A stretch of 58,386 nt of DNA from Candidatus Collierbacteria bacterium GW2011_GWB2_45_17 (GCA_001001485.1 LCKO01000010.1:1-58386); one strand, 5' to 3'; positions 4,228-58,386 are shown, numbered from the stretch's first letter. The notes: a model not told the origin generated them from the sequence alone. Numbers and translations are program-made.

Positions 4228-4782
4228 ATGGAAGCCGCACCTTCTACTATTATAGGGGAAGCTGTTCGTACGTATAGCGAAAGGGATAATAGGGTTCCGG
4301 GGGAAGTGACAAAAGAGGTGTTAGATTTTTTGGGACAGAGATATTCTAAAAGCAGTCCTTACGAAAAAAGAGTTTTGGAACTTGGGGTGGGGGCAGGATC
4401 GATAATGACATTTTTGAGGGAGAAATTTGGGGAAAAGGTTTTTGGGATGGATATCAGAGATAAATTGATTCGTGACGAAAAGATAATGAATCACTTATTG
4501 GCCGGTGATATTCTGAATATGCCTATAGCATCAAATTCGGTGGACGTGGTGGTTTCCATGCATAAATACGAATCACATGATCTGGAAAATATTCTGAGGG
4601 AAATAGAGAGAATTTTAAACTTTGGTGGAGAGGCGACTTTGGTGATACCTAGAACCGGTAAAAAAGGAGAACCGGCAGTGGGGTTACCGGGAGAAACAAA
4701 ACTAGGGGTAGATGGATTTAAAGAAATTTCTGTTCCGGGTGAAGTTGGTGACGCTTGGATAATCACCCTGAAGAAGAAGTGA
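4228..4782 (+). CDS. class I SAM-dependent methyltransferase
   Basis: 184 aa. Motif I VLELGVGAGS, and the post-I acidic residue in FGMDI. Confidence 0.7.
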   Translation: MEAAPSTIIGEAVRTYSERDNRVPGEVTKEVLDFLGQRYSKSSPYEKRVLELGVGAGSIMTFLREKFGEKVFGMDIRDKLIRDEKIMNHLLAGDILNMPIASNSVDVVVSMHKYESHDLENILREIERILNFGGEATLVIPRTGKKGEPAVGLPGETKLGVDGFKEISVPGEVGDAWIITLKKK

Positions 4783-4805
4783 CCTGCAGGGCCAGGCCCT
4801 GCAGG
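4783..4805. repeat. REP-A palindrome copy
   Basis: Perfect CCTGCAGGGCCAGGCCCTGCAGG, starting directly after the TGA stop of the methyltransferase. Confidence 0.9.
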
Positions 4806-4834
4806 TAAAAATTTGACAAAAGGCGTTTGGATGT

Positions 4835-5545
4835 GTGAAGATGGTGGATATGGATGAAAATACGGGTATAACAAACGATCAGGCGACGACATGGGCGCAG
4901 GATAATAAAACGATCATGGCACCTGAAGGATCGGTGGATCAGGGCAGAATTGCCGACTCCCCGACTGCTCAAAGAATGGCTAATTTTGAAAACATTACTC
5001 ATGACCCAAATGCTACCGATACAGATAAGGAATTAGCGACCAAAGCCGAATCAACAATAGAGGCCGTAGCAGAAGTGGACGCCAGTGGCCTTACTTCAGA
5101 GCAAAAGAAATTTGTAGAGGCGATTGAGAGTGTCAATGAGCGCCATCCTGGTGTTTTAGAGGTAGAGGTTGAGGAAAATCAAAAGTTTTGGAAAATCAAG
5201 AATTACAAGACTCATGAAATGATGTTTTTTTCTAAAAATGGTGTTTATAATATCAATTTGGAAAAAAACACTGACGATATAAATATATTAAGTCTTACAA
5301 AAATAACAGATCAGCTTGATATGGTTCCAGAAAAACACATGCGGTTTATTTCCGGAAGTGTCTCCAAAGATCTAACGGTTTATAACATGGGTTTCAGTTT
5401 GAATGCGGTGAAGCTTAATCTTGACGATGAGAACGAAAAAAGGTGGCTTTCAAATGCCATTGCTCTTGGAGATAATTTGGTTAGAGAAGAGGCTGAAGAA
5501 ACTCAAAAGGTAGGTGCCTCAGTTGATGTGCTTAATGCGCTATAA
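4835..5545 (+). CDS. hypothetical protein
   Basis: 236-aa ORF (GTG 4835; alternative ATGs at 4841 and 4850). No motif recognised. Confidence 0.5.
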   Translation: MKMVDMDENTGITNDQATTWAQDNKTIMAPEGSVDQGRIADSPTAQRMANFENITHDPNATDTDKELATKAESTIEAVAEVDASGLTSEQKKFVEAIESVNERHPGVLEVEVEENQKFWKIKNYKTHEMMFFSKNGVYNINLEKNTDDINILSLTKITDQLDMVPEKHMRFISGSVSKDLTVYNMGFSLNAVKLNLDDENEKRWLSNAIALGDNLVREEAEETQKVGASVDVLNAL

Positions 5546-43507: not shown

Positions 43508-45221
<1,714 letters not shown>

Positions 45222-45232
45222 AGTTTATTGTA

Positions 45233-48200
45233 CTATTTTGTCTCCACTAGCCAGTAGTTGAAGGAGATTCCGGCGGAGGGGGAGGCAGGGACAGCGACGG
45301 TGAAGCCCGTACCAGCTTGTTTGGACTTGACATATAGGACTTGGTTGGAAGTGTCGGAGATGGGGGTGAGGTAGATCAGGGTCTGATCGGTAACTTTTTG
45401 GTTGGCAACGACTATTTCGGCCGACCCACTAGCAATGGTGGCAGTGCCGATGGTGGTGTTGGAGCCGGTTTGGGCCGAAATGGTGGCCGTCTGATCGAGA
45501 TTGTCCGAGGCGATGATGAGGCCGCCGGCGGCGAGAGTGCCCGAGACGGTGGCGGTGCGGGTGTCGAGCCCCATACTATATATAGTACCGGTAATCAAGA
45601 GATCGCCATTGACCACTATTTTGCCGTCGGGGTAAAGCGTCATTAGATTCGCTAGGAGGTGGACCGGTTTGTCGCCGGTGGGTTGGATGTACAGATCGCT
45701 GTCGAAAGAACTAAATGACTGGGCAAAGAGCGAGCCGTTGACCAAGAGGGAGTCGAGGACTAGATCTGAGGGTAGAGTGGCCGAGGTGGTGGCGAGGGGT
45801 GAAAGAGCCAGCGGGTCACTATCGGTGATTGGTGCGGAGTTATTGGTGCCTAGTGCGAGAGAGTCGTAAGAAGTGTACTTGGCTTGGAGGTCGGCCAGAA
45901 TGGCGGAGGCGGTGGAGTATTTTTCGCTCAGAAGATCCAGCTGGGTGGTGAGATGGTCGACAGTTTTGCCCTTGATATTGTCGGCGTAAAGAGTGCCGGA
46001 GATGGTGGCATCGATGACTTTGAGCTGATCGATGTCGGCGATGGGAGAAATGAGTTTGGTGCGGACTGTTAAGTTGGTGGCGACCAGATCGGTAACTACT
46101 TGAGCACCGACCTTTAGATTGGCAATTAGACTTTGGAAGAAAGAGGAGACCTCTTTGGTTTCTTGACCATTAATTTTTACTTGATAGGAGCCATCAACTT
46201 TGGCAATCAGTTCTGGGGCAATAATCAGGGAACTGAGCAGACCGGTACCGGCAGTGTTTTGGTTGTTGTCCGGGTCGTTTAAGACGAAACCGACGGCGCC
46301 GGAGGTTCTGGTATTGGCCCACTGGGCACTATCGAATCTGGGAGCGGTCAGGCGATAGGTGACATCGGCCGGAGTGGAGGAGTAAATGGCGAGAATTTTG
46401 TTTGGCTCGTCGACTTCGTACCAGGTTTTGGCTTGACCGGCGGCGGTGAGGAGGACAGAAAGACTATCGATGTTGGCTTTTAGATCGGTGGTTTTGCTAA
46501 AAAGCCAGAGGTCGGAACCTTTGGGCTGAGCGTCTAGGTCGATAAGAACTCGATAGCCCAAGCCGTCCACTGCTTCCGAAACGGTAATCTTTCCCATAAC
46601 TTCTTCTTTGATACCAATGGTGCTGGAGAGGTAGGTGGCGTATTTTTCACCGTTAATGGTGTATGGCGGGTCGACCGTTCCAACGTCCATCTTGCCGGAG
46701 CCTCCACCGACGGTGACAGTACCGGCCAGGTTTGAATCACCTTTGACATAAAGAGTACTTTCTGTACCCAAAGTGCCGGAAATGGTGGCGGTGCCGGTGA
46801 CATCGAGGTTGAAGGTGGGGGCGACGGTGCTACCAATTCTCAGTTTGGAGGCCACCTTCCAGTCGCCATTGGTCAGCTGATTATTGAGAACATCAATGGT
46901 GGCGGTGCCGGAGTCGTCGGCAATTTGATTGACATATAAACCTGTCCAAGTTTGGGTGCTACTGCCTAGCGAGTAGGTCAGGTCGGAGTGGGGTAGGATG
47001 TGCCCCTCGGTTTCAAGAACTGCGAGGGCGTTCGTGATCGGGGTGGTGACGGAGTTGAAGCCAATTCCGAGTGGGTTCATGAAGAAAGATTGATTATCAT
47101 CACTTGACCCGGAGAGATGGATCAGAGCGGAGCTGGTGGCCGTGGCGCCGAGATTGACCGAGTCAGTGATCTGGGCCGGAGCCAAGGAAAGAGAGGTTCT
47201 TTGCCAGTTACTCGATGATAGAGGGGAGCCGTTCACCGTGTAATTGCCAGTGATATTGACATCGCCGACGACATCGAGTTTGTAAGCAGGCGCCGTCGTC
47301 CCAATCCCCACGTTGCCAGCATAGTCAACTACGAAAGGAGTCGTATCGGTATAAGTGCCATCATCGTTGACTCGGAGAGCATAAGCAGAAGTACCAGTTT
47401 GGGCGGTCGTTACATTTAAAGCTGTGCCATCGCCGGCTCCAGCTCCAGTTATGCCAACTTTTAGAGCCGAGCCGTCAATATCAGCGTCTGTACTTGTGGT
47501 ATATTCAATCTTAGCAAGATTTCCCGTCCACGAAGCGCCAGGATTTCCTGACGCGGTAATATTTAAAAGACCGCCAGTTGTAAGTGCGGTTGAAGTTGAG
47601 GCTAAACTAATAGCAGTTCCCGTAGTCAATGAATTGGCATTATAAGTTACGCCCGTCGTTGTGTCACCGGTAAAGTTTTGTGTCCAAGTAAAGGTAGTTT
47701 GATTTAAAATCAAATTAGCATCAAGATCTAAAGTATCTTCAAAATTGGAAAAATCAAGACAGTTGACACAACTGACATCGGTAGCGTACAGAGTGCCGTC
47801 AACTTCCGCATTTCCATAGACATAAAGATCTTCGTTGGCCGTGCCGTTATCAAAAGTATATCCGGTATCGGGGGCAATATACACATCTCCTCCGACCGTA
47901 TGGAATTTACTATCAGGAGCTACCGTTCCCACTCCCACATTTCCATTGGCCAAGACTTTCAAACCTGTAGTCCCACCACCGGTGAGGATACCACCAAGGG
48001 CAAAATCTCCACCCTGGACTTCTTTGAGCGAGAAAGTATCAAGGGTGAAAGCTTGTCCTGCCGTGAGAGTAGTGGTGATGACAAAGTCAGTGGGAGTGGT
48101 GGCTGATTTGAAATAAGTAGTCTGGGTACCGGCCGTCAAAGTCAAAGCAGTGGTCGCAGAAGCAAAAGCTGTCGTGATATTGGCAGTAGGAGTACCGGTC

Positions 48201-51049
48201 AAACCGGAGACGGTGTAGACAAACTTGTACCAACGTGAGCCAACTCCGGCCACAGCCAGGGTTCCACTGGCTTGCTGGACGGTTGAGGCAGTGCCAGCCG
48301 CAAAGGTACAGGTGGCGGCATCAGTAGCCAAAGCACAGTCGGTAGTTTGAGTCCAGGAAGTGCCGGCAGTCAAGTTGCCATTGGTCAGACTCTCAGTCCC
48401 AAGATCAGTCGGATCCATGATACTGCCATCTCCACCCCAGACAGAGAGTTTTTTGTCAGGGGTAAGGGTGCCGATACCGACGTTGCCGCTACTATCAACT
48501 CGCAACTTTTCACTATTATCAACTTTAACTATAAAGGCAGAATTTCCTTGTTGACTGCCTTCATCAGCAGATAAAATTATTTGTCCGTTATCCGCTGAGA
48601 TGACACTATAATTAGAAGTACCCAAAGTATCTTCAAGACGAATTCTGGGAGCTTGTGCCGCTATGTGCAACGGGTTACTTGGCGCCGTCGTCCCGATGCC
48701 GACGTTGCCGGCGTTACCTCCTTGCCCAACTACGGTAAAATAATCATTTGTACCAAAAGCGGTGCTTTGTGATAATGTAAAGCTGTCAGAATTAGATGTG
48801 TCAATTCCCATTGCCCACGCTGTACCCGCATTAAGCTCTTTCATTACAAGTAAAGCGTCATTACCAGGAGCAGAAAAAGCAAATGAATTATTTGCATTAG
48901 ACTCCCTAATAATTCGAAGGATATCATTACCGCTTGCGCCTCCATCAATTTGTAGTTTTGATCCTGGTCCCGTCGTCCCGATGCCCACATTCCCATTTTC
49001 AACAAGGAGACCATAGTTGTTGGTGGCGCCACTGGCAGAGAAATAACCGCCGATGTTGGTTGAAGTTGTCCCGGTGTTGGTGACGGCTGAGTAAAGACCG
49101 TAGGCGGTATGGGAAGCATTGGAGTTGGTTCCTGACCGGCTGATATCCAAAAGTTTAGAAACACCACTGGCTCCACCTGCAGTAGAAGTAGAGGAGAGGT
49201 CAAACAGAGTACCGGTGGTTAAAGAAGTAGAGGCAAGGGCAAAAGCATCGGCGGTGGTGACTGAATCAAAAGTAAAGGCGGTGGTATAGCCGGCATGGGC
49301 CAGGGAGAGATTGGCAGTGGGGGCTATGATAGAGGACCAAGGCAGGGTGCCGGCGAATGTTCCGGTGATGGTGCCGTTACAAGAGAGGTTGCCATTGCTG
49401 TTGGTGACGGTACAGCCGGTACCGCCATAGCCACCAGCCAGGTTGACGTCTCCGGTGGCGGTGCCGTTTAAGTTCAAAGCATCAGCTCCTTTACTATCAA
49501 TGGAAAGGGCAATGTCAGTATCTCCACCGGTGGCGGCAAGTAAGACTGTGCCGGCGGTAGCGGCATTGGTTAAAGTAGCCTCGTTCACGGCCGAGGCGGT
49601 GGTGCCAAACCTGATTGATTCATTACCGTTACTATCCAAGATATCTCCACCGGTAATTTGGAGATCGTCGGCAATGATGGTTTTGGTGCCGGTGTTGTCA
49701 ATAGTTAAATTACCTGATGAGTCAACAGTATGGGCGGAGTAGACTGTGCCGTCGGTGTAGGTGAGTCTTAGTTGTTCAGTAGTAGCCAAACTATCCAGCT
49801 TGGCGTCAGGCCCCGTCGTCCCGATGCCGACGTTGCCGGCATCAAAGATGGCGGCATAGTTGTTGGTGCCACCCGAAGCTGAGAAGTAGCCGCCGACGTT
49901 GGTGGTTGAAGCGCCGGTCTTGGTGGCATAAAGACCATAGCCGGTTCCAGTAATGGCTCCAGATTGGGCGATTTCCAGTCCCTTGATACTGGCAGTAGTA
50001 GCGGTACTGTTGATATAGGTGTTGTGGGCGACGATGCCGTTGGCGACGAAGTTGTGGGTGTTTTTCACCTCAATATCCCAAACTTGTTCCTCGCCGACGT
50101 ATGTGATGGAGGCAATTTTGACAAAGACTACCTCTTTAAGATCAGAGGTTGTTTCCATAACGGCAATTTCGTCGCCGGGGGAAAGATCGACAACCTTTGT
50201 CCAACCCAGGCTAAAACTTTTGTTGGCAGGCGATTTGACATTATTTGATTGATTTGTGATATTATTGGGAGGAATGGGAAGATTATCGACAGGCCAGTTA
50301 GGAAGATCTTCGGAAATTGCAGGAAATATTGCGGTTGCTTGGTTTTCAGCTGGAGCAATTTCCCCACTTTTGGCTCGCCCTAAATCGATTATTGATTTTA
50401 CGGTTACTTTTGTTGTTTCACTCGTAATATCTGGAGTGTTCTTTATTATTTCATTAAAATTAGCTAAGGAGGTAAGATGATGATTGAATGGAATGTTACC
50501 AACACTTATTTGTTGGCCGCTATCGTCAGTTGTTTGGTCTGGATTGTTTTCTATTATATTTACAAGAAAGGAAGGTGAGCTGTTGTGCAGGCTAACATTT
50601 ATTTGGTTATTATCGCTTTGGTTGTTATTTCTATCATCGGCTATCTGATCTTGTTCCGTTTGGGAAGGAAGTGAAGTTTTTACCAAGTAAGGATGATTAC
50701 CTGTGGTTCTGATAGTTTTTCCGTCTTTGGTGGTGAGTTTGTATACAGGTTTGACCCCCATGTTTAGTAAGCCTTTGATTGGCTGGGGTTCCAGCTGGCC
50801 GGTAGTTTCGTTAAAAGATAAAACATATTCACCACCTTTGACTTGGTCGATTCTTTGAGTGGAGCCGTCAGCTAAAGAAAGGAGTGAGTCGCCGGTGATA
50901 CACTGGCCGGCAACTTCCAGATTTGCCCCAGGAGCGGTTGTTCCGATGCCGACCGATCCATTTTCCACTATCAAACCATAGTTGTTGGTAGCCCCGGAGG
51001 CGGAGAAGTAGCCGCCGACGTTGGTGGAAGTTGTCCCGGTGTTGGTCAC
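45233..51049 (-). CDS. giant surface protein, C-terminal segment (frame stays open upstream to about 51303)
   Basis: 1938-aa ORF. Many NVGIGTT.P..KL tail-fibre-like motifs, one roughly 122-aa module, one intein. The track start (GTG 51049) is internal, because upstream codons read ...VSKLLDISRSGTNANASHTAYGLYSA. Confidence 0.7.
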   Translation of the reverse strand: MTNTGTTSTNVGGYFSASGATNNYGLIVENGSVGIGTTAPGANLEVAGQCITGDSLLSLADGSTQRIDQVKGGEYVLSFNETTGQLEPQPIKGLLNMGVKPVYKLTTKDGKTIRTTGNHPYLVKTSLPSQTEQDQIADDRNNNQSDNNQINVSLHNSSPSFLVNIIENNPDQTTDDSGQQISVGNIPFNHHLTSLANFNEIIKNTPDITSETTKVTVKSIIDLGRAKSGEIAPAENQATAIFPAISEDLPNWPVDNLPIPPNNITNQSNNVKSPANKSFSLGWTKVVDLSPGDEIAVMETTSDLKEVVFVKIASITYVGEEQVWDIEVKNTHNFVANGIVAHNTYINSTATTASIKGLEIAQSGAITGTGYGLYATKTGASTTNVGGYFSASGGTNNYAAIFDAGNVGIGTTGPDAKLDSLATTEQLRLTYTDGTVYSAHTVDSSGNLTIDNTGTKTIIADDLQITGGDILDSNGNESIRFGTTASAVNEATLTNAATAGTVLLAATGGDTDIALSIDSKGADALNLNGTATGDVNLAGGYGGTGCTVTNSNGNLSCNGTITGTFAGTLPWSSIIAPTANLSLAHAGYTTAFTFDSVTTADAFALASTSLTTGTLFDLSSTSTAGGASGVSKLLDISRSGTNSNASHTAYGLYSAVTNTGTTSTNIGGYFSASGATNNYGLLVENGNVGIGTTGPGSKLQIDGGASGNDILRIIRESNANNSFAFSAPGNDALLVMKELNAGTAWAMGIDTSNSDSFTLSQSTAFGTNDYFTVVGQGGNAGNVGIGTTAPSNPLHIAAQAPRIRLEDTLGTSNYSVISADNGQIILSADEGSQQGNSAFIVKVDNSEKLRVDSSGNVGIGTLTPDKKLSVWGGDGSIMDPTDLGTESLTNGNLTAGTSWTQTTDCALATDAATCTFAAGTASTVQQASGTLAVAGVGSRWYKFVYTVSGLTGTPTANITTAFASATTALTLTAGTQTTYFKSATTPTDFVITTTLTAGQAFTLDTFSLKEVQGGDFALGGILTGGGTTGLKVLANGNVGVGTVAPDSKFHTVGGDVYIAPDTGYTFDNGTANEDLYVYGNAEVDGTLYATDVSCVNCLDFSNFEDTLDLDANLILNQTTFTWTQNFTGDTTTGVTYNANSLTTGTAISLASTSTALTTGGLLNITASGNPGASWTGNLAKIEYTTSTDADIDGSALKVGITGAGAGDGTALNVTTAQTGTSAYALRVNDDGTYTDTTPFVVDYAGNVGIGTTAPAYKLDVVGDVNITGNYTVNGSPLSSSNWQRTSLSLAPAQITDSVNLGATATSSALIHLSGSSDDNQSFFMNPLGIGFNSVTTPITNALAVLETEGHILPHSDLTYSLGSSTQTWTGLYVNQIADDSGTATIDVLNNQLTNGDWKVASKLRIGSTVAPTFNLDVTGTATISGTLGTESTLYVKGDSNLAGTVTVGGGSGKMDVGTVDPPYTINGEKYATYLSSTIGIKEEVMGKITVSEAVDGLGYRVLIDLDAQPKGSDLWLFSKTTDLKANIDSLSVLLTAAGQAKTWYEVDEPNKILAIYSSTPADVTYRLTAPRFDSAQWANTRTSGAVGFVLNDPDNNQNTAGTGLLSSLIIAPELIAKVDGSYQVKINGQETKEVSSFFQSLIANLKVGAQVVTDLVATNLTVRTKLISPIADIDQLKVIDATISGTLYADNIKGKTVDHLTTQLDLLSEKYSTASAILADLQAKYTSYDSLALGTNNSAPITDSDPLALSPLATTSATLPSDLVLDSLLVNGSLFAQSFSSFDSDLYIQPTGDKPVHLLANLMTLYPDGKIVVNGDLLITGTIYSMGLDTRTATVSGTLAAGGLIIASDNLDQTATISAQTGSNTTIGTATIASGSAEIVVANQKVTDQTLIYLTPISDTSNQVLYVKSKQAGTGFTVAVPASPSAGISFNYWLVETK
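49442..49807 (-). repeat. 122-aa module copy 1 (DAKLDSLATTEQLRLTYTDGTVYSAHTVDSSGNLTIDN...NLNGTATGDVN)
   Basis: A 366-nt unit repeated four times in the locus; by eye, roughly 85-90% nt identity between copies. Confidence 0.85.
50021..50902 (-). mobile_element. mini-intein 2 (294 aa) in the giant surface protein
   Basis: Starts at Cys after ..GANLEVAGQ (CITGDSLLSL, block A). Block B TTGNHPYLV, block F/G VWDIEVKNTHNFVANGIVAHN followed by +1 Thr (TYINS). The N/Q/T-rich linker takes the place of a homing endonuclease. Confidence 0.75.
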
Positions 51050-51111
51050 GGCAGAGTAGAGTCCATAGGCGGTATGGGAAGCATTGGCATTGGTGCCTGA
51101 TCTACTAATAT

Positions 51112-52494
51112 CTAAAAGTTTAGAAACTCCACTAGCTCCTCCGGCGGTGGAGGTAGAGGAGAGTGCAAAAGCAGAGGCGCTAGTGAGTGAATCAAAAGTA
51201 AAGGCAGTGGTATAGCCGGCATGAGCCAGGGAGAGATTGGCGGTGGGGGCAATAATGGATGACCAAGGCAGGGTGCCGGCGAATGTTCCGGTGATGGTGC
51301 CGTTATTAAAGCATCCGCTCCTTTGCTGTCAATTGATAAAGCAACGTCGGTATCTCCTCCGGTGGCGGCCAGAGTGACTGTTCCACCGGTGGCGGCATTG
51401 GTGAGAGTAGCTTCGTTGACGGCAGAGGCGGTGGTGCCAAAGCGGATTGATTCGTTGCCGTTGCTATCAAGAATATCCCCACCCGTGATTTGGAGATCAT
51501 CGGCAATGATGGTTTTGGTGCCGGTGTTGTCAATTGTCAGGTTTCCGGAGGAGTCAACGGTGTGGGCGGAATAGACCGTGCCGTCAGTGTAGGTGAGGCG
51601 GAGCTGTTCCGTAGTTGCCAAAGAATCAAGTTTAGCATCCGGCCCCGTCGTCCCGATGCCGACGTTGCCGTTACCTAAAATTGACAACAACTTTGTATCA
51701 CTACCTATAATTCCTGTAGCGACCTGGAAAACAGTTTCAAGCGCCCCCAATGCCACACGATTAACACCACTTTTCTTGTTACCACTTAACCATATTGCGG
51801 GAGTTGTGTCGGTTGGATCATCTACTCCAATTATTCCCTCCATTTGTATACCGGGAAAAGCTGCGCTTGTACTTATACCAGCCAAACCAGCACCACCAAC
51901 AGTGGCATGTGTAGGTTTTATTTGTAAAATAGAATTGGTTGGAGCAAAGTCCACCATACCATGTGCTATATCGGTATCTGTCAAAAGAAGATTTCCATCT
52001 CTTACATCCAGTTTCGCTCCCGGTCCCGTCGTCCCGATGCCGACGTTGCCGGCGCCAACAATTAAGCCGTAGTTGTTGGTAGCCCCAGAGGCGGAGAAGT
52101 AGCCGCCGATATTGATGGAAGTGGTGCCGGTGTTGGTAACGGCAGAATAGAGTCCATAGGCGGTATGGGAAGCATTGGAGTTGGCGCCTGATCTACTAAT
52201 ATCCAAAAGTTTAGAAACTCCACTAGCTCCTCCGGCTGTGGAGGTGGAGGAGAGAGCAAAAGCAGAGGCGCTAGTGAGTGAATCAAAAGTAAAGGCGGTG
52301 GTATAGCCGGCATGAGCCAGGGAGAGATTGGCGGTGGGGGCAATAATGGATGACCAAGGCAGGGTGCCGGCGAATGTTCCGGTGATGGTGCCGTTAGTTG
52401 ACATCACCGGTGGCGGTGCCATTGAGATTGAGCGCATCAGCTCCTTTACTGTCAATTGATAAAGCAACGTCAGTATCTCCACCGGTGGCGGCAA
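51112..52494 (-). CDS. giant surface protein, internal segment (true coding part about 51303-52396; both ends of the ORF are out-of-frame read-through)
   Basis: 460-aa ORF. The central part reads STNGTITGTFAGTLPWSS...NVGIGTTGPDAKLDSLATTEQ... The N- and C-terminal Pro-rich stretches are alternative-frame translations of the repeat. Confidence 0.55.
   Translation of the reverse strand: MPPPVEILTLLYQLTVKELMRSISMAPPPVMSTNGTITGTFAGTLPWSSIIAPTANLSLAHAGYTTAFTFDSLTSASAFALSSTSTAGGASGVSKLLDISRSGANSNASHTAYGLYSAVTNTGTTSINIGGYFSASGATNNYGLIVGAGNVGIGTTGPGAKLDVRDGNLLLTDTDIAHGMVDFAPTNSILQIKPTHATVGGAGLAGISTSAAFPGIQMEGIIGVDDPTDTTPAIWLSGNKKSGVNRVALGALETVFQVATGIIGSDTKLLSILGNGNVGIGTTGPDAKLDSLATTEQLRLTYTDGTVYSAHTVDSSGNLTIDNTGTKTIIADDLQITGGDILDSNGNESIRFGTTASAVNEATLTNAATGGTVTLAATGGDTDVALSIDSKGADALITAPSPEHSPAPCLGHPLLPPPPISPWLMPAIPLPLLLIHSLAPLLLHSPLPPPPEELVEFLNF
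51304..51639 (-). repeat. 122-aa module copy 2 (3'-truncated at a deletion junction)
   Basis: Same unit as 49442-49807. It ends at DSKGADAL, followed by the junction ..GCTTTAATAACGGCACC. Confidence 0.8.
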
Positions 52495-55400
52495 ACAAGA
52501 CGGTGCCAGCTGTGGCTGCGTTAGTCAAAGTAGCTTCGTTGACGGCCGAGGCGGTGGTGCCAAAGCGGATTGATTCGTTGCCATTACTATCCAGGATATC
52601 TCCACCCGTTATCTGCAGATCGTCGGCAATGATGGTTTTGGTGCCGGTGTTATCAATGGTTAGGTTGCCTGAGGAATCGACGGTATGGGCGGAGTAGACT
52701 GTGCCGTCCGTATAAGTTAGTCTTAGTTGTTCGGTGAGTGCCAAAGAATCCAACTTAGCATCCGGTCCCGCCGTCCCGATGCCGACGTTGCCAGTGTCTC
52801 TATCCACCGTCAACCTTGTATTTATCGTTACGCCAGTCGCAGAATTTAAATAGAATTTATTATCTCCACCGTCATACACCATGCGAAAACCTCCTGAATT
52901 TGCATTACCAAAGGCGCCATTAGCCTCTGAATTAGCTTCTGTCAAGTCAATATAGGAGTCGTAAGTACTAAGAGTATTAAGTAAAACATTAGAATTAGTA
53001 GCACCATATACATTTAATTTACTTAACGGTCCCGTCGTCCCGATGCCGACTTGCCCGGCTTCATCAACCACAAAAGGAGTGGAATCGGTAAAAGTACCGT
53101 CATCATTGACGCGGAGAGCAAAGTTGGAAGTTCCGGCATCTGTTGAGGCGGTGGTAATATTTAGAGCTGATGAATTGGCCCCTGTATAGTTTTGAGCAAT
53201 CCTCATCGTGTCTCCGGTCCAAGTTAAGGTTCCGGCGGTTTGAGTTCCCGAGTCAGATACGGTTACCCCGGCTCCTGATACGGTATGGGTATTGCCAACG
53301 TTATTGAGAGTGATGGCGCGGGAGAGATCCAAGACATTGCCGGTTGAGTCAAGTCCAGCCCCGCCGTTAAATGTTTGGGAGTAGGTGACATTGGCAATAT
53401 CCGAGGTAAAGGCAGTTGAGCCGGACGACCCTGTTTTACTTAAAGTCAAAAGCTCTCCATTAAAGGCGGTGGCGGTCGAGGAGAGAGCCAGAGCCGTACC
53501 TGTTGTCAAACTTGTGGATGAAAGAGCAAAGGCATCGGCGCTAGTGAGTGAATCAAAAGTAAAGGCGGTGGTATAGCCGGCGTGAGCGAGGGAGAGATTG
53601 GCAGTTGGCGCAATGATAGAAGACCAAGGGAGGGTTCCGGCAAATGTTCCGGTGATGGTTCCATTACAAGAGAGGTTGCCATTGCTATTGGTCACGGTAC
53701 AGCCGGTACCTCCATATCCGCCGGCAATATTTACGTCCCCGGTGGCGGTGCCATTGAGATTTAAGGCATCAGCCCCTTTACTGTCAATTGATAAAGCAAT
53801 GTCCGTATCTCCACCGGTGGCGGCAAGTAAGACGGTGCCGGCGGTAGCGGCATTGGTTAAAGTGGCTTCATTCACGGCCGAGGCCGTGGTGCCAAACCGG
53901 ATTGATTCATTACCGTTACTATCCAAAATATCTCCACCGGTAATTTGGAGATCGTCGGCAATGATTGTTTTGGTGCCGGTGTTGTCAATGGTCAGGTTGC
54001 CGGAGGAGTCAACGGTATGGGCGGAGTAGACAGTGCCGTCGGTGTAGGTCAGTCTTAATTGTTCGGTCGTGGCTAAAGAATCCAATTTAGCGTCCGGCCC
54101 CGTCGTCCCGACGCCGACGTTGCCGGAATTATCTATTGTCATTCGTGTGCCTATTGCCGTCCCATTATATGTCGCAAAGTGAATGTTCTTTTGTATATTT
54201 GTTCTCGCTTGCAGGTAAAGATCTCCACTGTTCGAGTTGTATATGGTAGGTACACTCACAGATGAAAGAGCTGTTTGGCTTGCTTCAAGTCGCAGGTAGC
54301 CATCAAGGGAAGTATCTCCATCCTCATCAACATAAAACGCAGTTGTGTTTAGATTTGAACCTATCGTGAATAATATTTGGTTGCCGCTAACTGCGGAATC
54401 ATAGATTTCAAGGTTTGCCCCCGGTCCCGTCGTCCCGATGCCGACGTTGCCGGCGCCAACAATTAAGCCGTAGTTGTTGGTAGCTCCTGAAGCGGAGAAG
54501 TAACCACCGACGTTGGTGGTAGAAGCGCCGGTCTTGGCGGCATACAGTCCATAGCCGGTACCGGTAATTGCTCCCGACTGGGCGATCTCCAAGCCTTTCA
54601 CACTGGCAGTAGTTGCCGTGCTGTTGATATAGGTGTTGTGAGCCACGATGCCGTTGGCGACGAAGTTGTGGGTGTTGGCAATTTGGAGATCGTAGACATG
54701 TTTGGCTGGGAGGATGCGAATGGAGATGATTTTTTCAAATTGTAATTCTCCGTTAGGGTCTGTCCTTTTTGGGGAACCAGATCCGTTAAGGACAGACCCT
54801 ATTGGACTCAAGACCGCGATTTCGTCACCTTTGTTGAGATAGATGACCTTGGTCCATTGTGGTAAAGTATTATTGATGTCAATTAATCCGGCTTGGTCAT
54901 CGGTGGTTTCTGATTTGTTTGTTAATTTGTCAGCCGGTTGGTTTGGAGCCGCATTTATTGTGCCTAATTTTTCTAATGTAAAAGGAGCGAAAAGGTTAGT
55001 GATGTTGACGGGTGATTTAGTATTTGCTATAGTTTCATTGTTAATAGCATCTTGGTTGAGATTATGAAAAATATTGAAAAATTCGACATTCTTGATATCA
55101 ACGCCCGAGTGGCTATTGCTTTCGGACTGGCGTTGGTTGCTTTGTTGCTGACCTATATCGCTTTCTTTAAGTAATTTGGTTCTCGCTAAGTACGGGTGAT
55201 TGGCGGTCGTTTCAATTCTTTTGCCTGTTTCGGTAGTTAATTCATAGATTTCTTTGGTGCCCATGTCCAGGGTTTTTTCGACGATCTGGTACTCAAACTG
55301 TCCGGTTGCTTCGTTGAGAGACAGAACTTGGTCGCCGGACTGAATGTCTTTGATTTTTTTCTCACCGACAGAAGTGCTGACTAAGGAGTTTTCTTCGATA

Positions 55401-55675
55401 CACTGGCCGGCAACTTCCAGATTTGCCCCAGGCCCCGTCGTCCCGATGCCGACGTTGCCGGCGTTTAGAATAATATTTCCGGTAGTGGAGTTACCCAGGG
55501 TCAGAGATTGCTTCGCGGTGGTCGCCAGGTTGCCGTCTTGACGTTTAGGACCGCGAACTTGGCCGAGGTCGAGGCCGTACTGCCCACGAGGAGGTCGAGC
55601 GTGTCGTTTATGGGGGAGAGGGCGCCGGCGGTGATGCGCCAGTTTGAGGAACCACCGGCAGATTGAGCCACCCAA
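52394..55675 (-). CDS. giant surface protein, central segment (true coding part from about 55538)
   Basis: 1093-aa ORF. Two module copies and one intein. The first roughly 45 aa of the track ORF (MGGSICRWFLKLAHHRRRP...) are out-of-frame read-through of the upstream segment. Confidence 0.7.
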   Translation of the reverse strand: MGGSICRWFLKLAHHRRRPLPHKRHARPPRGQYGLDLGQVRGPKRQDGNLATTAKQSLTLGNSTTGNIILNAGNVGIGTTGPGANLEVAGQCIEENSLVSTSVGEKKIKDIQSGDQVLSLNEATGQFEYQIVEKTLDMGTKEIYELTTETGKRIETTANHPYLARTKLLKESDIGQQQSNQRQSESNSHSGVDIKNVEFFNIFHNLNQDAINNETIANTKSPVNITNLFAPFTLEKLGTINAAPNQPADKLTNKSETTDDQAGLIDINNTLPQWTKVIYLNKGDEIAVLSPIGSVLNGSGSPKRTDPNGELQFEKIISIRILPAKHVYDLQIANTHNFVANGIVAHNTYINSTATTASVKGLEIAQSGAITGTGYGLYAAKTGASTTNVGGYFSASGATNNYGLIVGAGNVGIGTTGPGANLEIYDSAVSGNQILFTIGSNLNTTAFYVDEDGDTSLDGYLRLEASQTALSSVSVPTIYNSNSGDLYLQARTNIQKNIHFATYNGTAIGTRMTIDNSGNVGVGTTGPDAKLDSLATTEQLRLTYTDGTVYSAHTVDSSGNLTIDNTGTKTIIADDLQITGGDILDSNGNESIRFGTTASAVNEATLTNAATAGTVLLAATGGDTDIALSIDSKGADALNLNGTATGDVNIAGGYGGTGCTVTNSNGNLSCNGTITGTFAGTLPWSSIIAPTANLSLAHAGYTTAFTFDSLTSADAFALSSTSLTTGTALALSSTATAFNGELLTLSKTGSSGSTAFTSDIANVTYSQTFNGGAGLDSTGNVLDLSRAITLNNVGNTHTVSGAGVTVSDSGTQTAGTLTWTGDTMRIAQNYTGANSSALNITTASTDAGTSNFALRVNDDGTFTDSTPFVVDEAGQVGIGTTGPLSKLNVYGATNSNVLLNTLSTYDSYIDLTEANSEANGAFGNANSGGFRMVYDGGDNKFYLNSATGVTINTRLTVDRDTGNVGIGTAGPDAKLDSLALTEQLRLTYTDGTVYSAHTVDSSGNLTIDNTGTKTIIADDLQITGGDILDSNGNESIRFGTTASAVNEATLTNAATAGTVLFAATGGDTDVALSIDSKGADALNLNGTATGDVN
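52397..52762 (-). repeat. 122-aa module copy 3
   Basis: DAKLDSLALTEQLRLTYTDG...NLNGTATGDVN, followed directly by a stop created at a 62-nt deletion junction. Confidence 0.85.
53729..54094 (-). repeat. 122-aa module copy 4
   Basis: DAKLDSLATTEQLRLTYTDG...NLNGTATGDVN, followed by the intact IAGGYGGTGCTVTNSNGNLSCNGTITG segment. Confidence 0.85.
54635..55402 (-). mobile_element. mini-intein 1 (256 aa) in the giant surface protein
   Basis: Cys1 after ..GANLEVAGQ (CIEENSLVST). Block B TTANHPYLA, block F/G VYDLQIANTHNFVANGIVAHN plus Thr (TYINS). Q/N/S-rich linker, no endonuclease motifs seen. Confidence 0.75.
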
Positions 55676-56775
55676 GAGAGCGTGCCGGAGCCGTTGGTTT
55701 GTAAGACATAGTTAGTTGTTTGAGAGCTGGGCCAGGTGTAAGAGAGAGAGTTGAGAGTGGTGGTGCCGGCGAAGGTAACGTTGTCGTTTAGGGAGATGAT
55801 GGTGGAGTTGGAAGTCAGAGTTAAGTTGCCGGCAATATCATCAAGGGTGTGAGCCACGCCGTCCAGAAGAGAGATAATTCCCGCGTTGTTTAGAGTAAAC
55901 TTGGCCACGCCGGAGGCGGAGGCGGAAAAAAGATTGCCGGCGCCTGATTGATTTACAATAAAAGCGGAGTCGGTGGCGTTGGTGTTTAGATAGGCTCGGC
56001 CATCGGCGGCCACCCAGAAGCGATCGGTCTCGGTGGAGCCTGAAGTAAGAGAGAGGAGCCTGCCGGTCGCCGTGTCGTTCCCTACGTAACCCGAGAGGAG
56101 AGAGCCGGAAGTGAGATTGGCGTTCGTGACTCTAAAAGAGTCTTCGGTGGTAGTGCCACCCAGAGCCAGGATTTGGCCGGAGCCAAGGGCGTCCGGCTGA
56201 AAAATAACGTCGCCACCGGAGTCAGTGCCAGTTTTGAGGGCCAGGACTTGACCTTGAACAGAAAAAGTGCCGGAACTGGAAATGAGGGAAGGAGAGGGGG
56301 CAGCGATATTGATGTTGCCGGAGTTGTCGACCACCGGTACGGTGTTGATGGTGGCGGACGAAGATGCCGGATACCCCTGGAGGGTTTCGGAGTTGAGAGC
56401 GTAGCCGACGGTGGCAATTTGCTGACGGGGGGTTAGAGTTTCGGCGCCGACGGTGATTTCCAGATAAACGTCCCGATTGTCCGTGAAAACAGTGGAAGTT
56501 ATTTCCGCACCACAGACAGTGTCGCCTAGGAGAGTGTTAAAAATGCCATCTTGGTCGGGAGTGATCGAACAGGTACCGGTGGTGTAGAGCTGAGTGGGGC
56601 CGGTGAGCGCGTTGTAGAGCTTGAAAACTACGTTGACGGCGGTGGTGATGGGAGTGCCGCCACTGTCGGTGAGCCTGCCTTGGAAGGAAAGTTGTCTTTT
56701 GGGAGGGGTAAGTGAAGTGGCGGCGGAGCTGGGTCTCGCTTGGCTCACGATCTGATTGTAGGCGAAGATAGCCAT
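55501..56775 (-). CDS. giant surface protein, N-proximal extracellular segment (frame open without a start codon up to about 57242)
   Basis: 424-aa ORF from ATG 56775, but the upstream in-frame codons encode a second SAM-like repeat and a TM helix (..LPWTPYLNLALLVLATTAMAIFAY). Motif SFQGRLTDSGGTPITTAVNVVFKLY...YLEITVGAETLTPRQQI. Confidence 0.65.
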   Translation of the reverse strand: MAIFAYNQIVSQARPSSAATSLTPPKRQLSFQGRLTDSGGTPITTAVNVVFKLYNALTGPTQLYTTGTCSITPDQDGIFNTLLGDTVCGAEITSTVFTDNRDVYLEITVGAETLTPRQQIATVGYALNSETLQGYPASSSATINTVPVVDNSGNINIAAPSPSLISSSGTFSVQGQVLALKTGTDSGGDVIFQPDALGSGQILALGGTTTEDSFRVTNANLTSGSLLSGYVGNDTATGRLLSLTSGSTETDRFWVAADGRAYLNTNATDSAFIVNQSGAGNLFSASASGVAKFTLNNAGIISLLDGVAHTLDDIAGNLTLTSNSTIISLNDNVTFAGTTTLNSLSYTWPSSQTTNYVLQTNGSGTLSWVAQSAGGSSNWRITAGALSPINDTLDLLVGSTASTSAKFAVLNVKTATWRPPRSNL

Positions 56776-57056
56776 GGCGGTAGTGGCCAGGACTAGGAGA
56801 GCCAGATTGAGGTAGGGCGTCCAAGGCAGAGCGTGGTAGCGGTCGTAGGCTTGGCCGAGTCTGTTTCTAGGCGTGGGGGATTCTTTCTTTCTTTGGGTCA
56901 GTCTTTCCAGCCAGGCCAGGGGAGAGAGAGTCTGGGGAGTAGCTTTCAGTTCGAAAGGATTTTCGGGGAGATAGCTTTGCTCGTAAGAAAACTTGGTGAG
57001 CTTTTTGATGGAGGACTGGCGACGGTTGATGACGGAAGTACTAGTATGAGATAGTT

Positions 57057-57590
57057 TTAGGTAGGTAACATAGGTGGAAAGTAGCTGTTCGCTAAGAATG
57101 TTGACCAGATTTTGGTCGGTAAAGGGGGTTTGGTTGGCAGTCCAGAGAAAGAAGTGATGAAGATCCGAAAGGTAGTTTTTGACGGTATTTTGGCGGAGGA
57201 GAGGGAAGCGGCGGGTGACACACCCTGTAGGGCCAGGCCTTGAGGATTGGTGCCCTTTAAGGCCTGGCCCTGGAGAGGGGCGAGGCCGAACTGGGCGTGC
57301 AGGAAAGTAGAGAAGCGGCGGATGGAGGCGAGGCGCCTGGCAGTGGTGTTTGCCGGAGTGAAGGAGGCTTTTTGAGCTTGAAGATAGGGATCGAGGTATT
57401 GATTGAGATTTTGGAAGATGTCTTTGGTGGTGAGGGTGAGGCCCGCCGCCGCCGAAGGCTCTGGCGAGGTAAAGGAGAGGAAGTGGCGGAGATCGGAGAG
57501 GTAGTTTTTGATAGAGACGGAAGAAAGACCGGCCTGCTGGAGAAAGGCTTGGAAGAATTTTAACAGTTCTACTTGGTCGGGCAGGTACAT
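57057..57590 (-). CDS. giant surface protein, N-terminal cytoplasmic segment with tyrosine-recombinase core-binding (SAM-like) repeat
   Basis: 177-aa ORF. FLQQAGLSSVSIKNYLSDLRHFLSF ... TTARRLASIRRFSTFL resembles the phage-integrase N-terminal SAM-like domain. The last roughly 60 aa are out-of-frame after the REP-A dimer. Confidence 0.6.
   Translation of the reverse strand: MYLPDQVELLKFFQAFLQQAGLSSVSIKNYLSDLRHFLSFTSPEPSAAAGLTLTTKDIFQNLNQYLDPYLQAQKASFTPANTTARRLASIRRFSTFLHAQFGLAPLQGQALKGTNPQGLALQGVSPAASLSSAKIPSKTTFRIFITSFSGLPTKPPLPTKIWSTFLANSYFPPMLPT
57224..57275. repeat. REP-A dimer with a 1-nt gap in one arm (site of frame break)
   Basis: CCTGTAGGGCCAGGCCTTG-AGG ... CCCTTTAAGGCCTGGCCCTGGAG. 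The arm GGCCTTGAGG lacks the C expected from palindrome symmetry (GGCCTTGCAGG). Confidence 0.75.
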
Positions 57591-57684
57591 AAAATTTAAC
57601 TGGCAGTGATGACCAGTAAAAATATAATGGGGAGAATAAAAATCAGGCCGGCGGTGAGAAGTTCGGGGAGAAACGAATTTTTGT

Positions 57685-57726
57685 TATATAGATTGCCGCG
57701 ATCGCCTAGGCAACCTCGCAATGACG
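57685..57726 (+). repeat. E-type hairpin element
   Basis: TATATAGATTGCCGCGATCGCCTAGGCAACCTCGCAATGACG. Confidence 0.8.
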
Positions 57727-57905
57727 ATTCGGAGTAGTCGGTAATTAACATGTGTTGATTAAGTGTTGATAACTTTGTTTTAGGTTTGGATTAGACGATA
57801 TTAGACGGTAATATACTAGGCTATATACTAATATAATAAGAGATTGTGACCAAGTCAAGAGGGAGAGAAAGGATGCGGAGAATCGATAAAATAGGTAATA
57901 ATTTG

Positions 57906-57936
57906 TATGGATTCCGGGTCGGTACCCGGAATGACA
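57906..57936 (+). repeat. G-type hairpin element
   Basis: TATGGATTCCGGGTCGGTACCCGGAATGACA. Confidence 0.7.
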
Positions 57937-58162
57937 TAGATTATTGACGCAGATGTTTGCGGGATAAATTATCTTCATGCGGATATTGTGGCTAATATTT
58001 TTAAATATCGCGCGGAAATACTAAATAGGCTCGGCTTTGTTGTGAAAATATTATCTGATGTAGAGTGATGTCTATTGATAATGAGATATATAGTATGCGG
58101 TAATTGCGTGACATGATTGAATTTATGGCTAACGCAGCAGAGTAAACCCTAATCGATTCTTC

Positions 58163-58199
58163 CGTCATTGCGAGGTTGCCTAGGTGACCGCGGCAATCC
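58163..58199 (-). repeat. E-type hairpin element (inverted)
   Basis: CGTCATTGCGAGGTTGCCTAGGTGACCGCGGCAATCC is the reverse complement of the E consensus. Confidence 0.8.
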
Positions 58200-58210
58200 G
58201 GGGAATGGAT

Positions 58211-58267
58211 CTACCCGCAAGGGGTATCCAGGAGAGCCACATCTCGACTACAAGATTTGCGATGACG
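58211..58267 (+). repeat. E-type long element, near-copy of the one inside copA
   Basis: CTACCCGCAAGGGGTATCCAGGAGAGCCACATCTCGACTACAAGATTTGCGATGACG versus 9061-9116. Confidence 0.75.
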
Positions 58268-58268
58268 A

Positions 58269-58385
58269 TTATATCTTGGGGTAGAGATATTCGGAGAAGA
58301 GGTACTGGAGAGAGAGGTAGGCGTAGATAAGGATGGGGTAGGAGGGTTTGATGGCAAAGGCAGTGAGGCTTGTAAGGCAGGCGAT
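58269..58385 (-). CDS. 3' end of a gene truncated by the window edge (hydrophobic C-terminus)
   Basis: Minus-strand frame reads IACLTSLTAFAIKPSYPILIYAYLSLQYLFSEYLYPKI, then stop (TAA, complement of 58269-58271). No stop occurs up to the window end. Confidence 0.35.
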   Translation of the reverse strand: MACLTSLTAFAIKPSYPILIYAYLSLQYLFSEYLYPKI

Positions 58386-58386
58386 A

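Follow-up and report, generated by a model that had tools for sequence, protein, structure and literature searches.

The window analysed here is a stretch of 58,386 nt from a groundwater member of Patescibacteria, Candidatus Collierbacteria bacterium GW2011_GWB2_45_17 (LCKO01000010.1:1-58386). It carries a gene for one protein of about 4,200 aa, made of repeats, into which two inteins, called A and B, are inserted. In a JGI assembly of the same population it is called as one gene of 4,208 aa, to which Intein_splicing matches twice and Phage_int_SAM_1 once. The gene and the parts of the two inteins are as follows.

45233..57590, minus strand: host gene, one protein of ~4,200 aa.
54635..55402, minus strand: intein A, a class-1 mini-intein of 256 aa with Cys1, block B TTANHPYL and block F/G VYDLQIANTHNFVANGIVAHN; its linker has ~110 aa, roughly residues 76-185.
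50021..50902, minus strand: intein B, a class-1 mini-intein of 294 aa with Cys1, block B TTGNHPYL and block F/G VWDIEVKNTHNFVANGIVAHN; its linker, residues 80-228, is predicted to be disordered.
55403..55459, minus strand: N-extein motif of intein A, GNVGIGTTGPGANLEVAGQ, which ends in Gly-2 and Gln-1.
50903..50959, minus strand: N-extein motif of intein B, GSVGIGTTAPGANLEVAGQ.
54410..54634, minus strand: C-extein module after intein A, Thr+1 followed by TYINSTATTASVKGLEIAQSGAITGTGYGLYAAKTGASTTNVGGYFSASGATNNYGLIVGAGNVGIGTT.
49796..50020, minus strand: C-extein module after intein B, TYINSTATTASIKGLEIAQSG...GNVGIGTT, paralogous to the one that follows A.

In translation, intein A follows ..GPGANLEVAGQ, reads CIEENSLV...TTANHPYL...NTHNFVANGIVAHN and is succeeded by TYINSTATTASVKGLEIAQSG; intein B follows ..APGANLEVAGQ, reads CITGDSLL...TTGNHPYL...NTHNFVANGIVAHN and is succeeded by TYINSTATTASIKGLEIAQSG. 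The Thr at position +1 is in both cases the first residue of TYINSTATTAS(V/I)KGLEIAQSG. The initial annotation had described two elements of 256 and 294 aa at these positions, both starting with Cys after ..GANLEVAGQ, ending in NTHNFVANGIVAHN and followed by Thr. This description was right, with the correction that the gene lies on the minus strand and is frame-broken in this assembly. The N-extein of intein A fits the N-extein consensus of the family, G-T-T-S-P-x-x-K-L-H-V-E-G-Q. The GC content is 42% in the inteins and 50-55% in the exteins, and the family hidden Markov model (HMM) detected no Hint domain besides A and B within the 58-kb window.

Both elements are class-1 mini-inteins by profile, fold and junction residues, in agreement with the class first proposed for them. 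With the Pfam profile PF14890 (Intein_splicing), which has a curated cut-off of 35.8 bits, intein A scored 74.6 bits (E 1e-20) and intein B 66.5 bits (E 3e-18), and the NCBIfam models TIGR01445 (intein_Nterm) and TIGR01443 (intein_Cterm) exceeded their cut-offs in both; the comparison with PF14890 recommended in the initial annotation came out positive. The longest NCBIfam matches were to intein-containing DnaB. A sequence search of the PDB returned the Npu, Ssp and other DnaB and DnaX mini-inteins as the best matches, and for intein A the best solved structure was the Npu DnaB mini-intein 4o1r (E 4.7e-13). In the AlphaFold2 (AF2) model of intein B, the predicted local distance difference test (pLDDT) value is above 90 at residues 1-79 and 229-294 and below 50 at residues 80-228. 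When this model was submitted to Foldseek, the template modelling (TM) scores were 0.90 on Npu DnaB 4o1r, 0.87 on Ssp DnaB 1mi8 and 0.88 on a RecA mini-intein.

The catalytic features of class-1 inteins were taken as listed in PMC4031507, and the complete set is present in A and B: Cys1, block B Thr and His, block F Asp and His, His-Asn and Thr+1. In this class position 1 can be Cys or Ser, and the residue that opens the C-extein can be Cys, Ser or Thr. Thr(B:7) and His(B:10) of block B lie in GKRIETTANHPYL and GKTIRTTGNHPYL, and both inteins end in ..GIVAHN, with His-Asn at G:6 and G:7. T66, T67 and H70 are invariant across a 62-sequence alignment, which was partly chosen by the block B motif. 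Inteins of class 3 lack an N-terminal nucleophile and have Cys at F:4, part of the WCT triplet; A and B are not of this class, as they start with Cys1 and have Asp at that place in block F (VYD, VWD). No Pfam domain was found in either linker, where a homing endonuclease would sit, and both elements are therefore mini-inteins and not bifunctional inteins. The description of the linkers as N/Q/S/T-rich also stands; they are of low complexity and predicted to be disordered.

Short conserved peptide islands were seen in these otherwise unalignable linkers, LGTINAAPNQPADKLTNKSE at ~54850-54910 in A and SGEIAPAENQATAIFPAISE at ~50300-50360 in B. They also occur in the related proteins P0003, P0004, P0006, P0008, P0011 and P0015. 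Strings of the GIEP(P/V) type in the linkers of some relatives resemble the reverse complement of a tRNA T-arm. A tRNA or structured RNA in the linkers of the window was considered and rejected, as ARAGORN and an Rfam E-value scan of 44000-58386 gave nothing relevant.

By sequence comparison, A and B are one example of a clade that has hundreds of members and is common among Candidate Phyla Radiation (CPR) bacteria. A word-indexed protein search with intein A gave 20 partial CPR proteins, three of which carry two inteins, and most of those with visible junctions show the same context as A and B. The species representatives of GTDB, scanned with the intein alignment, contained at least 483 confirmed stretches. 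When 1.84 billion representative proteins were searched exhaustively with a profile, 2,770 matches were obtained with E<=1e-10 and 312 protein clusters with E<=1e-30; the top matches are giant proteins, the longest of them 6,089 aa, and each holds several inteins. The best 79 of the at least 483 GTDB loci come nearly all from Patescibacteria, with a few from DPANN archaea. Among these 79, the context of almost every parsed C-terminus is ..GNVGIGTTSPxxKLHVEGQ, then the intein C(V/I)TGD...THNF(V/I)(A/G)N(G/D)I(V/I)AHN, then T(Y)(I)xGNVGIGTT.., and the one clear exception has a DnaB-like context. Some open reading frames (ORFs) could be followed straight through the inteins, for example in locus L042 over 3,546+ aa on a 597-kb contig and in L047 over 4,300+ aa with four inteins.

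The junction residues are conserved in the homologs, as would be expected from the class proposed for A and B. Thr is found at +1 in all 145 junctions of the top representative proteins, in 60 of 61 fully parsed GTDB inteins and in 77 of the 79 C-termini, and it was not imposed by the junction parsing. Thr+1 is required for splicing, not for cleavage. The residue at -1 is Gln in 101 of the 137 junctions from the top representative proteins. A phage origin was also considered, but IMG/VR yielded only 27 weak matches, all of which lie in host proteins of other kinds, outside a fibre context, and have Cys, Ser or Thr at +1. Some clade members are already labelled "Hint domain-containing protein" in databases. 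In the open-access literature, neither inteins in surface proteins of CPR or DPANN nor inteins bearing an NYN domain were found described, and an intein clade of giant fibre proteins apparently has not been described before. The pair had been called unusual at the outset. This is true against the intein literature, but not among CPR bacteria, where such inteins are common.

The host is a large, variable, repetitive and exported protein, which is the typical setting of bacterial intein-like (BIL) domains (PMC5874633). On these grounds the two Hint domains could be domesticated auto-processing modules of the BIL or pretoxin HINT (PT-HINT) kind, which would cleave the fibre or make a reactive thioester for attachment or cross-linking, without scarless splicing. 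Suboptimal contexts often give cleavage side-products of inteins (PMC4031507), and the PT-HINT profile PF07591 does reach its cut-off on the N-lobe of intein A. However, its scores of 35.8 bits for A and 13.7 bits for B cover only profile positions 1-82 of 137, and the intein profile scores about twice as high. The PF07591 comparison that had been recommended gives a match on the N-lobe and none to the full profile. The Hedgehog Hint profile likewise matched weakly and in the N-terminal half only. Pretoxin HINT domains resemble A and B in this weak N-lobe similarity and in their occurrence in very large exported repetitive proteins, but they sit just upstream of a C-terminal toxin and release it. 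For A and B the C-terminal half of the profile is unmatched, no toxin domain was detected in the 1,595 aa downstream, and a Pfam/profile scan of the exteins found no toxin or other releasable domain after either intein, which argues against auto-processing.

The comparison with BILs depends on the residue after the intein. A-type BIL domains have the C-terminal His-Asn, BILs are without the +1 nucleophile, and B-type BILs are also without block G similarity (PMC4031507). The initial annotation, which had BILs without both His-Asn and nucleophile, was therefore correct for the nucleophile and mistaken for His-Asn. Since BILs are defined by the missing +1 nucleophile, the label does not fit A or B, which have Thr+1 and a canonical block G; and since A-type BILs share His-Asn, it is Thr+1 that discriminates here. 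As far as the work of Amitai et al. 2003 and Dassa et al. 2004 is summarized in PMC4031507, type A BILs are like A and B in having a Hint domain and His-Asn and in residing in the variable parts of large proteins that are secreted or on the surface. Unlike A and B, with their Thr+1 and their best scores to intein profiles, they mainly cleave and have no +1 nucleophile. A further point comes from the exteins. The A extein, spliced in silico, aligned gap-free across the junction with P0022, a protein that has no intein (55% over 101 aa, E 9e-29), and it is also colinear across the junction with the intein-less P0028. The spliced junction thus restores a module that is contiguous in intein-less homologs. 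With Thr+1 invariant across the clade, we regard auto-processing modules as very unlikely.

We now compare the two inteins with each other. By BLASTP, A and B are 33% identical (105/318, E 1e-36), within the 30-40% that had been estimated by eye and far more diverged than their flanks, and their linkers are essentially unalignable. On core columns the identity is 42%. The nearest relative of A elsewhere is an intein in L021 (56%) and that of B an intein in L011 (66%), with further closer relatives in other genomes (P0001, P0004); B ranks only 9th among the neighbours of A, and A 20th among those of B. Each intein is closer to foreign inteins than to its gene-mate, which argues against a simple recent duplication, and the initial annotation had judged this correctly.

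The flanks behave differently. On the N side 17 of 18 protein residues up to Q-1 match, and on the C side ~75 residues are ~90% identical. At the DNA level, the identity between the A and B copies is a sharp mosaic along extein, intein and extein: 80% in the 20 N-extein codons (91% over the 57 nt of the N-extein motif), 37-46% in the intein body, 95% (40/42 nt) in the last 14 intein codons and 73-88% in the 80 C-extein codons. The remaining repeats of the host gene are 83-88% identical in DNA, and the flanks are therefore two copies of its normal repeat module. Their near identity, which had been noted before, is real, but it is simply that of the repeats of this gene. The 95% tract (54635-54676 against 50021-50062) is more similar than the extein next to it (82-88%), and directly upstream of it the identity is only 46%, which places a conversion or recombination boundary within the inteins, near blocks F and G.

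This pattern bears on whether the pair arose by intragenic duplication of one extein-intein-extein unit, after which the inteins diverged fast while the flanks stayed similar. The gene is built of similar repeats, the ends of the inteins are 95% identical over 42 nt, and intragenic intein pairs elsewhere can be nearest to each other (L008, 74%; L047, 70%; L035, 67%). In other genomes co-resident inteins are in some cases mutual nearest relatives and in others not, so that both intragenic duplication and independent colonisation occur, and the window pair is, by these identities, of the divergent kind. The 42% identity on core columns, the closer relatives elsewhere and the unrelated linkers of A and B speak against a duplication, and gene conversion at a later time accounts better for the 95% tract. 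We therefore consider a duplication of this kind quite improbable. Given the divergence of A and B and their closer foreign relatives, any duplication must predate the split of several CPR lineages. Within the B lineage most splicing-block columns are invariant and the linker is essentially unalignable, a conservation pattern that fits selection on splicing only.

One more position in the host gene corresponds to an intein site.

55993..55998, minus strand: empty intein site in the N-terminal fibre domain, ..FWVAADGR followed by AYLNTN...

In the Beckwithbacteria ortholog P0002 (49% over 269 aa up to the site), an A-like intein follows at this place, ..FTVDRSGQ before CIEENS... The C-extein of the site aligns in P0020, and sites of this type are also occupied in L018, L047, L058 and L072 (C-extein TTGKAL..). 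The orthologous site being occupied in Beckwithbacteria and empty in the window, this was counted for mobility.

The copy of the host gene in the window is not in one reading frame. It consists of four ORFs in two frames (55501..56775, 52394..55675, 51112..52494 and 45233..51049) and a fifth piece at 57057..57590. By three-frame translation, the breaks at ~55540, 52396/52397 and 51288-51305 are out-of-frame deletions within repeats, and a fourth break would lie at ~57200. Two of the four deletions take out the segment ..(NLNGTATGDVN)LAGGYGGTGCTVTNSNGNLSC. Taken at face value, four or five ORF pieces in two frames with out-of-frame deletions suggest that the inteins are dead relics in a pseudogene. 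For comparison, other assemblies of the same population were retrieved from JGI, NCBI and ENA by an exact-protein look-up of the neighbouring Obg gene. The NCBI contig LCKJ01000018.1 is identical to the window, and the other assemblies match it 100% over 44001-51305. Three of them, from JGI and twice from ENA (L001, L004 and L005), are 100% identical outside the junctions and have 62 and ~94 extra bases at two internal junctions. These three and L006 have zero internal stops over the 3,115 codons that each covers.

The junctions at ~55540 and ~57200 are covered only by L006 and the related L113, and L006 is in frame across the break at ~55540. L006 is without one entire 1,091-nt repeat unit. 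Its 39 differences all cluster at assembly junctions and its intein A is identical, so that its use as a strain variant for dN/dS was abandoned. The differences are confined to repeat junctions, as is usual when an assembly follows a wrong path, and the catalytic residues are all intact in both inteins; we therefore consider a pseudogene extremely unlikely. The frameshifts in the window are probably due to mis-assembly of the repeats; a minority haplotype, or real length variation of the fibre, is possible. The idea that the inteins stem from an assembly chimera was rejected, since their in-frame context recurs in independent assemblies and in over 140 representative proteins.

The N-terminal part of the host protein has the following features.

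56830..57590, minus strand: N-terminal region with two phage-integrase N-terminal SAM-like domains, presumably cytoplasmic.
56758..56823, minus strand: single predicted transmembrane helix of 22 residues, WTPYLNLALLVLATTAMAIFAY, between the SAM-like domains and the fibre region.

The profile PF02899 scored 35.9 bits on one window piece and 22.9 bits on the other. In the metagenomic locus L113, where the same layout of SAM-like domains and helix is found in a single reading frame (~4340-5200), it scored 52.8 bits and matched two stretches. The helix has a Kyte-Doolittle 19-residue mean of 1.78, with 7 K/R in the preceding 30 residues and 4 in the following 30. From the K/R-rich preceding side and the SAM domains upstream, the host is most likely anchored in the membrane by a single pass, with the N-terminus inside and ~3,900 aa of repetitive sequence outside. 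DNA-binding-type SAM-like domains on the presumed cytoplasmic side, followed by one transmembrane helix, are an odd architecture. The exteins gave weak tail-fibre PHROG matches and no Pfam domain, and the AF2 model of the C-extein module has a mean pLDDT of 48. We use the term surface fibre on the basis of the predicted topology, the repeats and these weak PHROG matches, and the fibre-like host named in the initial annotation is consistent with this membrane-anchored, repetitive protein. Downstream of the inteins there are 1,600-3,000 aa of fibre.

Directly downstream of the fibre gene, at 44562-45221 on the minus strand, there is an ORF of 219 aa whose N-terminus resembles that of type IV pilins and whose C-terminal half is rich in Cys. 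It gave only a weak ComP_DUS match in Pfam, and it may be functionally linked to the fibre. The GC skew is positive in all 2-kb bins of 1-58386 regardless of gene strand, and its cumulative value rises monotonically to 6.0. From this uniform skew, the window apparently lies on one replichore with a strong strand compositional bias.

Nuclease domains within the clade were of one kind. No LAGLIDADG or HNH domain was found among the 62 related inteins, and an NYN domain (PF01936, PIN-like nuclease) is nested between blocks B and F in 15 of the 62. Examples are L084:6001-7098, L053:4906-6069, L077:3175-4434, L049:5574-6680, L062:4822-5910 and residues 178-332 of P0013. NYN could be a new intein-associated nuclease. 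In the linkers of the window no NYN remnant was detected with an HMM of 13 NYN inserts, which gave E ~5 for B and zero match for A.

The host proteins contain 895 motifs of the form GIGT..P...L.V, and an intein follows 156 of them. After in-silico splicing, the flanking GIGT motifs are <=30 aa apart in 48% (mode 23 aa), compared with 6% elsewhere in the hosts. From this short spacing, many inteins seem to travel with a short duplicated motif unit, which points, at the family level, to recombination at the repeated motif as one route of spread. The inteins of the window are not of the 23-aa type, and each precedes a module of ~75 aa.

Taking these results together, we hold it to be probable, with good confidence, that A and B are class-1 mini-inteins of different sub-lineages of a clade specific to CPR and DPANN, whose niche is a recurring motif in giant fibre proteins. 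This motif, in giant membrane-anchored repetitive fibre proteins, is ..GNVGIGTTxPxx(K)L(H)VxGQ before the intein and T(Y)(I).. after it. After translation, the N-lobe (~80 aa) and the C-lobe (~65 aa) would fold into the HINT horseshoe, with the linker of 110-150 aa looping out disordered. At the bond between Gln(-1) and Cys1, Cys1 would then carry out an N-S acyl shift, transesterification would move the N-extein onto Thr+1, and the C-terminal Asn would cyclise with the help of the penultimate His and release the intein. A final O-N shift would give an ordinary peptide bond, ..LEVAGQ-TYINSTATTAS.., and restore the conserved extein module. The ligated junction would give the GluC peptide VAGQTYINSTATTAS(V/I)KGLE. 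As neither intein has a nuclease, both would now be maintained only through selection on splicing. To give the pair, the same repeat module would have been colonised on two separate occasions or duplicated very long ago, and gene conversion among the host repeats would keep the flanks and the last 14 intein codons alike.

Several points weigh against this interpretation. First, that A and B actually splice is what we infer, as are the cellular compartment of splicing and the route of intein mobility. Second, the copy of the gene in the window is itself frame-broken, and it would be a pseudogene if the break were real and not an assembly error. Third, the host region appears to be extracytoplasmic, which poses the problem of whether the protein folds and splices before it is exported, and to our knowledge natural protein splicing in an exported protein has not been documented. 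Fourth, Q-T-(Y/F/A)-(I/L/F) follows none of the 739 unoccupied motifs, and with no empty site having Q/TYI flanks among them, classical homing into identical empty alleles is not evident. Finally, the linker is unusually long for a mini-intein and has no NYN remnant.

The clade might instead be integrated in the biogenesis of the fibre and not be merely parasitic. Canonical inteins sharing the junctions GQ and T(Y)(I) would then be retained in the exported part of the fibre proteins through a coupling of splicing to export or assembly. They would spread by recombination at GNVGIGTT, both within a fibre gene and from one to another, and in some lineages the nested NYN nuclease would assist as a new kind of homing enzyme. 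For example, as long as the intein is still in place, it could keep the repeat region from folding or assembling in the cytoplasm; alternatively, splicing could take place only post-translocation, in a reducing environment. We think this unlikely, and we retain mini-inteins with the fibre motif as their niche as the preferred explanation.

When compared with known systems, A and B are closest to the DnaB mini-inteins (Npu 4o1r and Ssp 1mi8), with which they share the HINT fold, Cys1, block B T-x-x-H, block F D..HNF(V)AN and His-Asn, and presumably the four-step splicing chemistry. The differences are in the setting. The host is a repetitive exported fibre and not a replicative helicase, and the site is a repeated structural motif and not a catalytic one. 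In addition, Thr+1 is invariant in the clade, there are often several copies per gene, and a disordered N/Q/S/T-rich linker of 110-150 aa stands where full-length DnaB inteins carry the nuclease. Haloarchaeal MCM, with four insertion sites (PMC10643990), resembles the host protein in having several inteins per gene and presence/absence polymorphism of the sites. However, MCM is an essential enzyme that has its LAGLIDADG inteins at different conserved positions, whereas here the sites are copies of one repeated motif in a structural protein and NYN is the only nuclease domain seen in the clade. According to reviews, inteins are found mostly at conserved functional sites in enzymes of replication, repair and housekeeping (PMC7765530). 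The inteins of this clade differ from the known ones in their niche, the several inteins per gene, the invariant Thr+1, the long disordered linkers and NYN as the only nuclease seen.

Thus canonical inteins with a +1 nucleophile are found in a repeated structural motif of a giant, fast-evolving fibre, and hundreds of CPR and DPANN relatives are alike. The clade comprises many compact and mutually divergent Cys1/Thr+1 inteins with near-identical junctions, which makes it attractive for orthogonal splicing tools, and it offers NYN as a candidate new intein-associated nuclease. If splicing holds true, the lengths and domain maps of giant CPR surface proteins would need to be corrected for inteins. 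It would also mean that inteins persist outside essential enzymes by way of a motif that offers many target sites per genome, and that protein splicing joins the maturation of exported proteins in bacteria.

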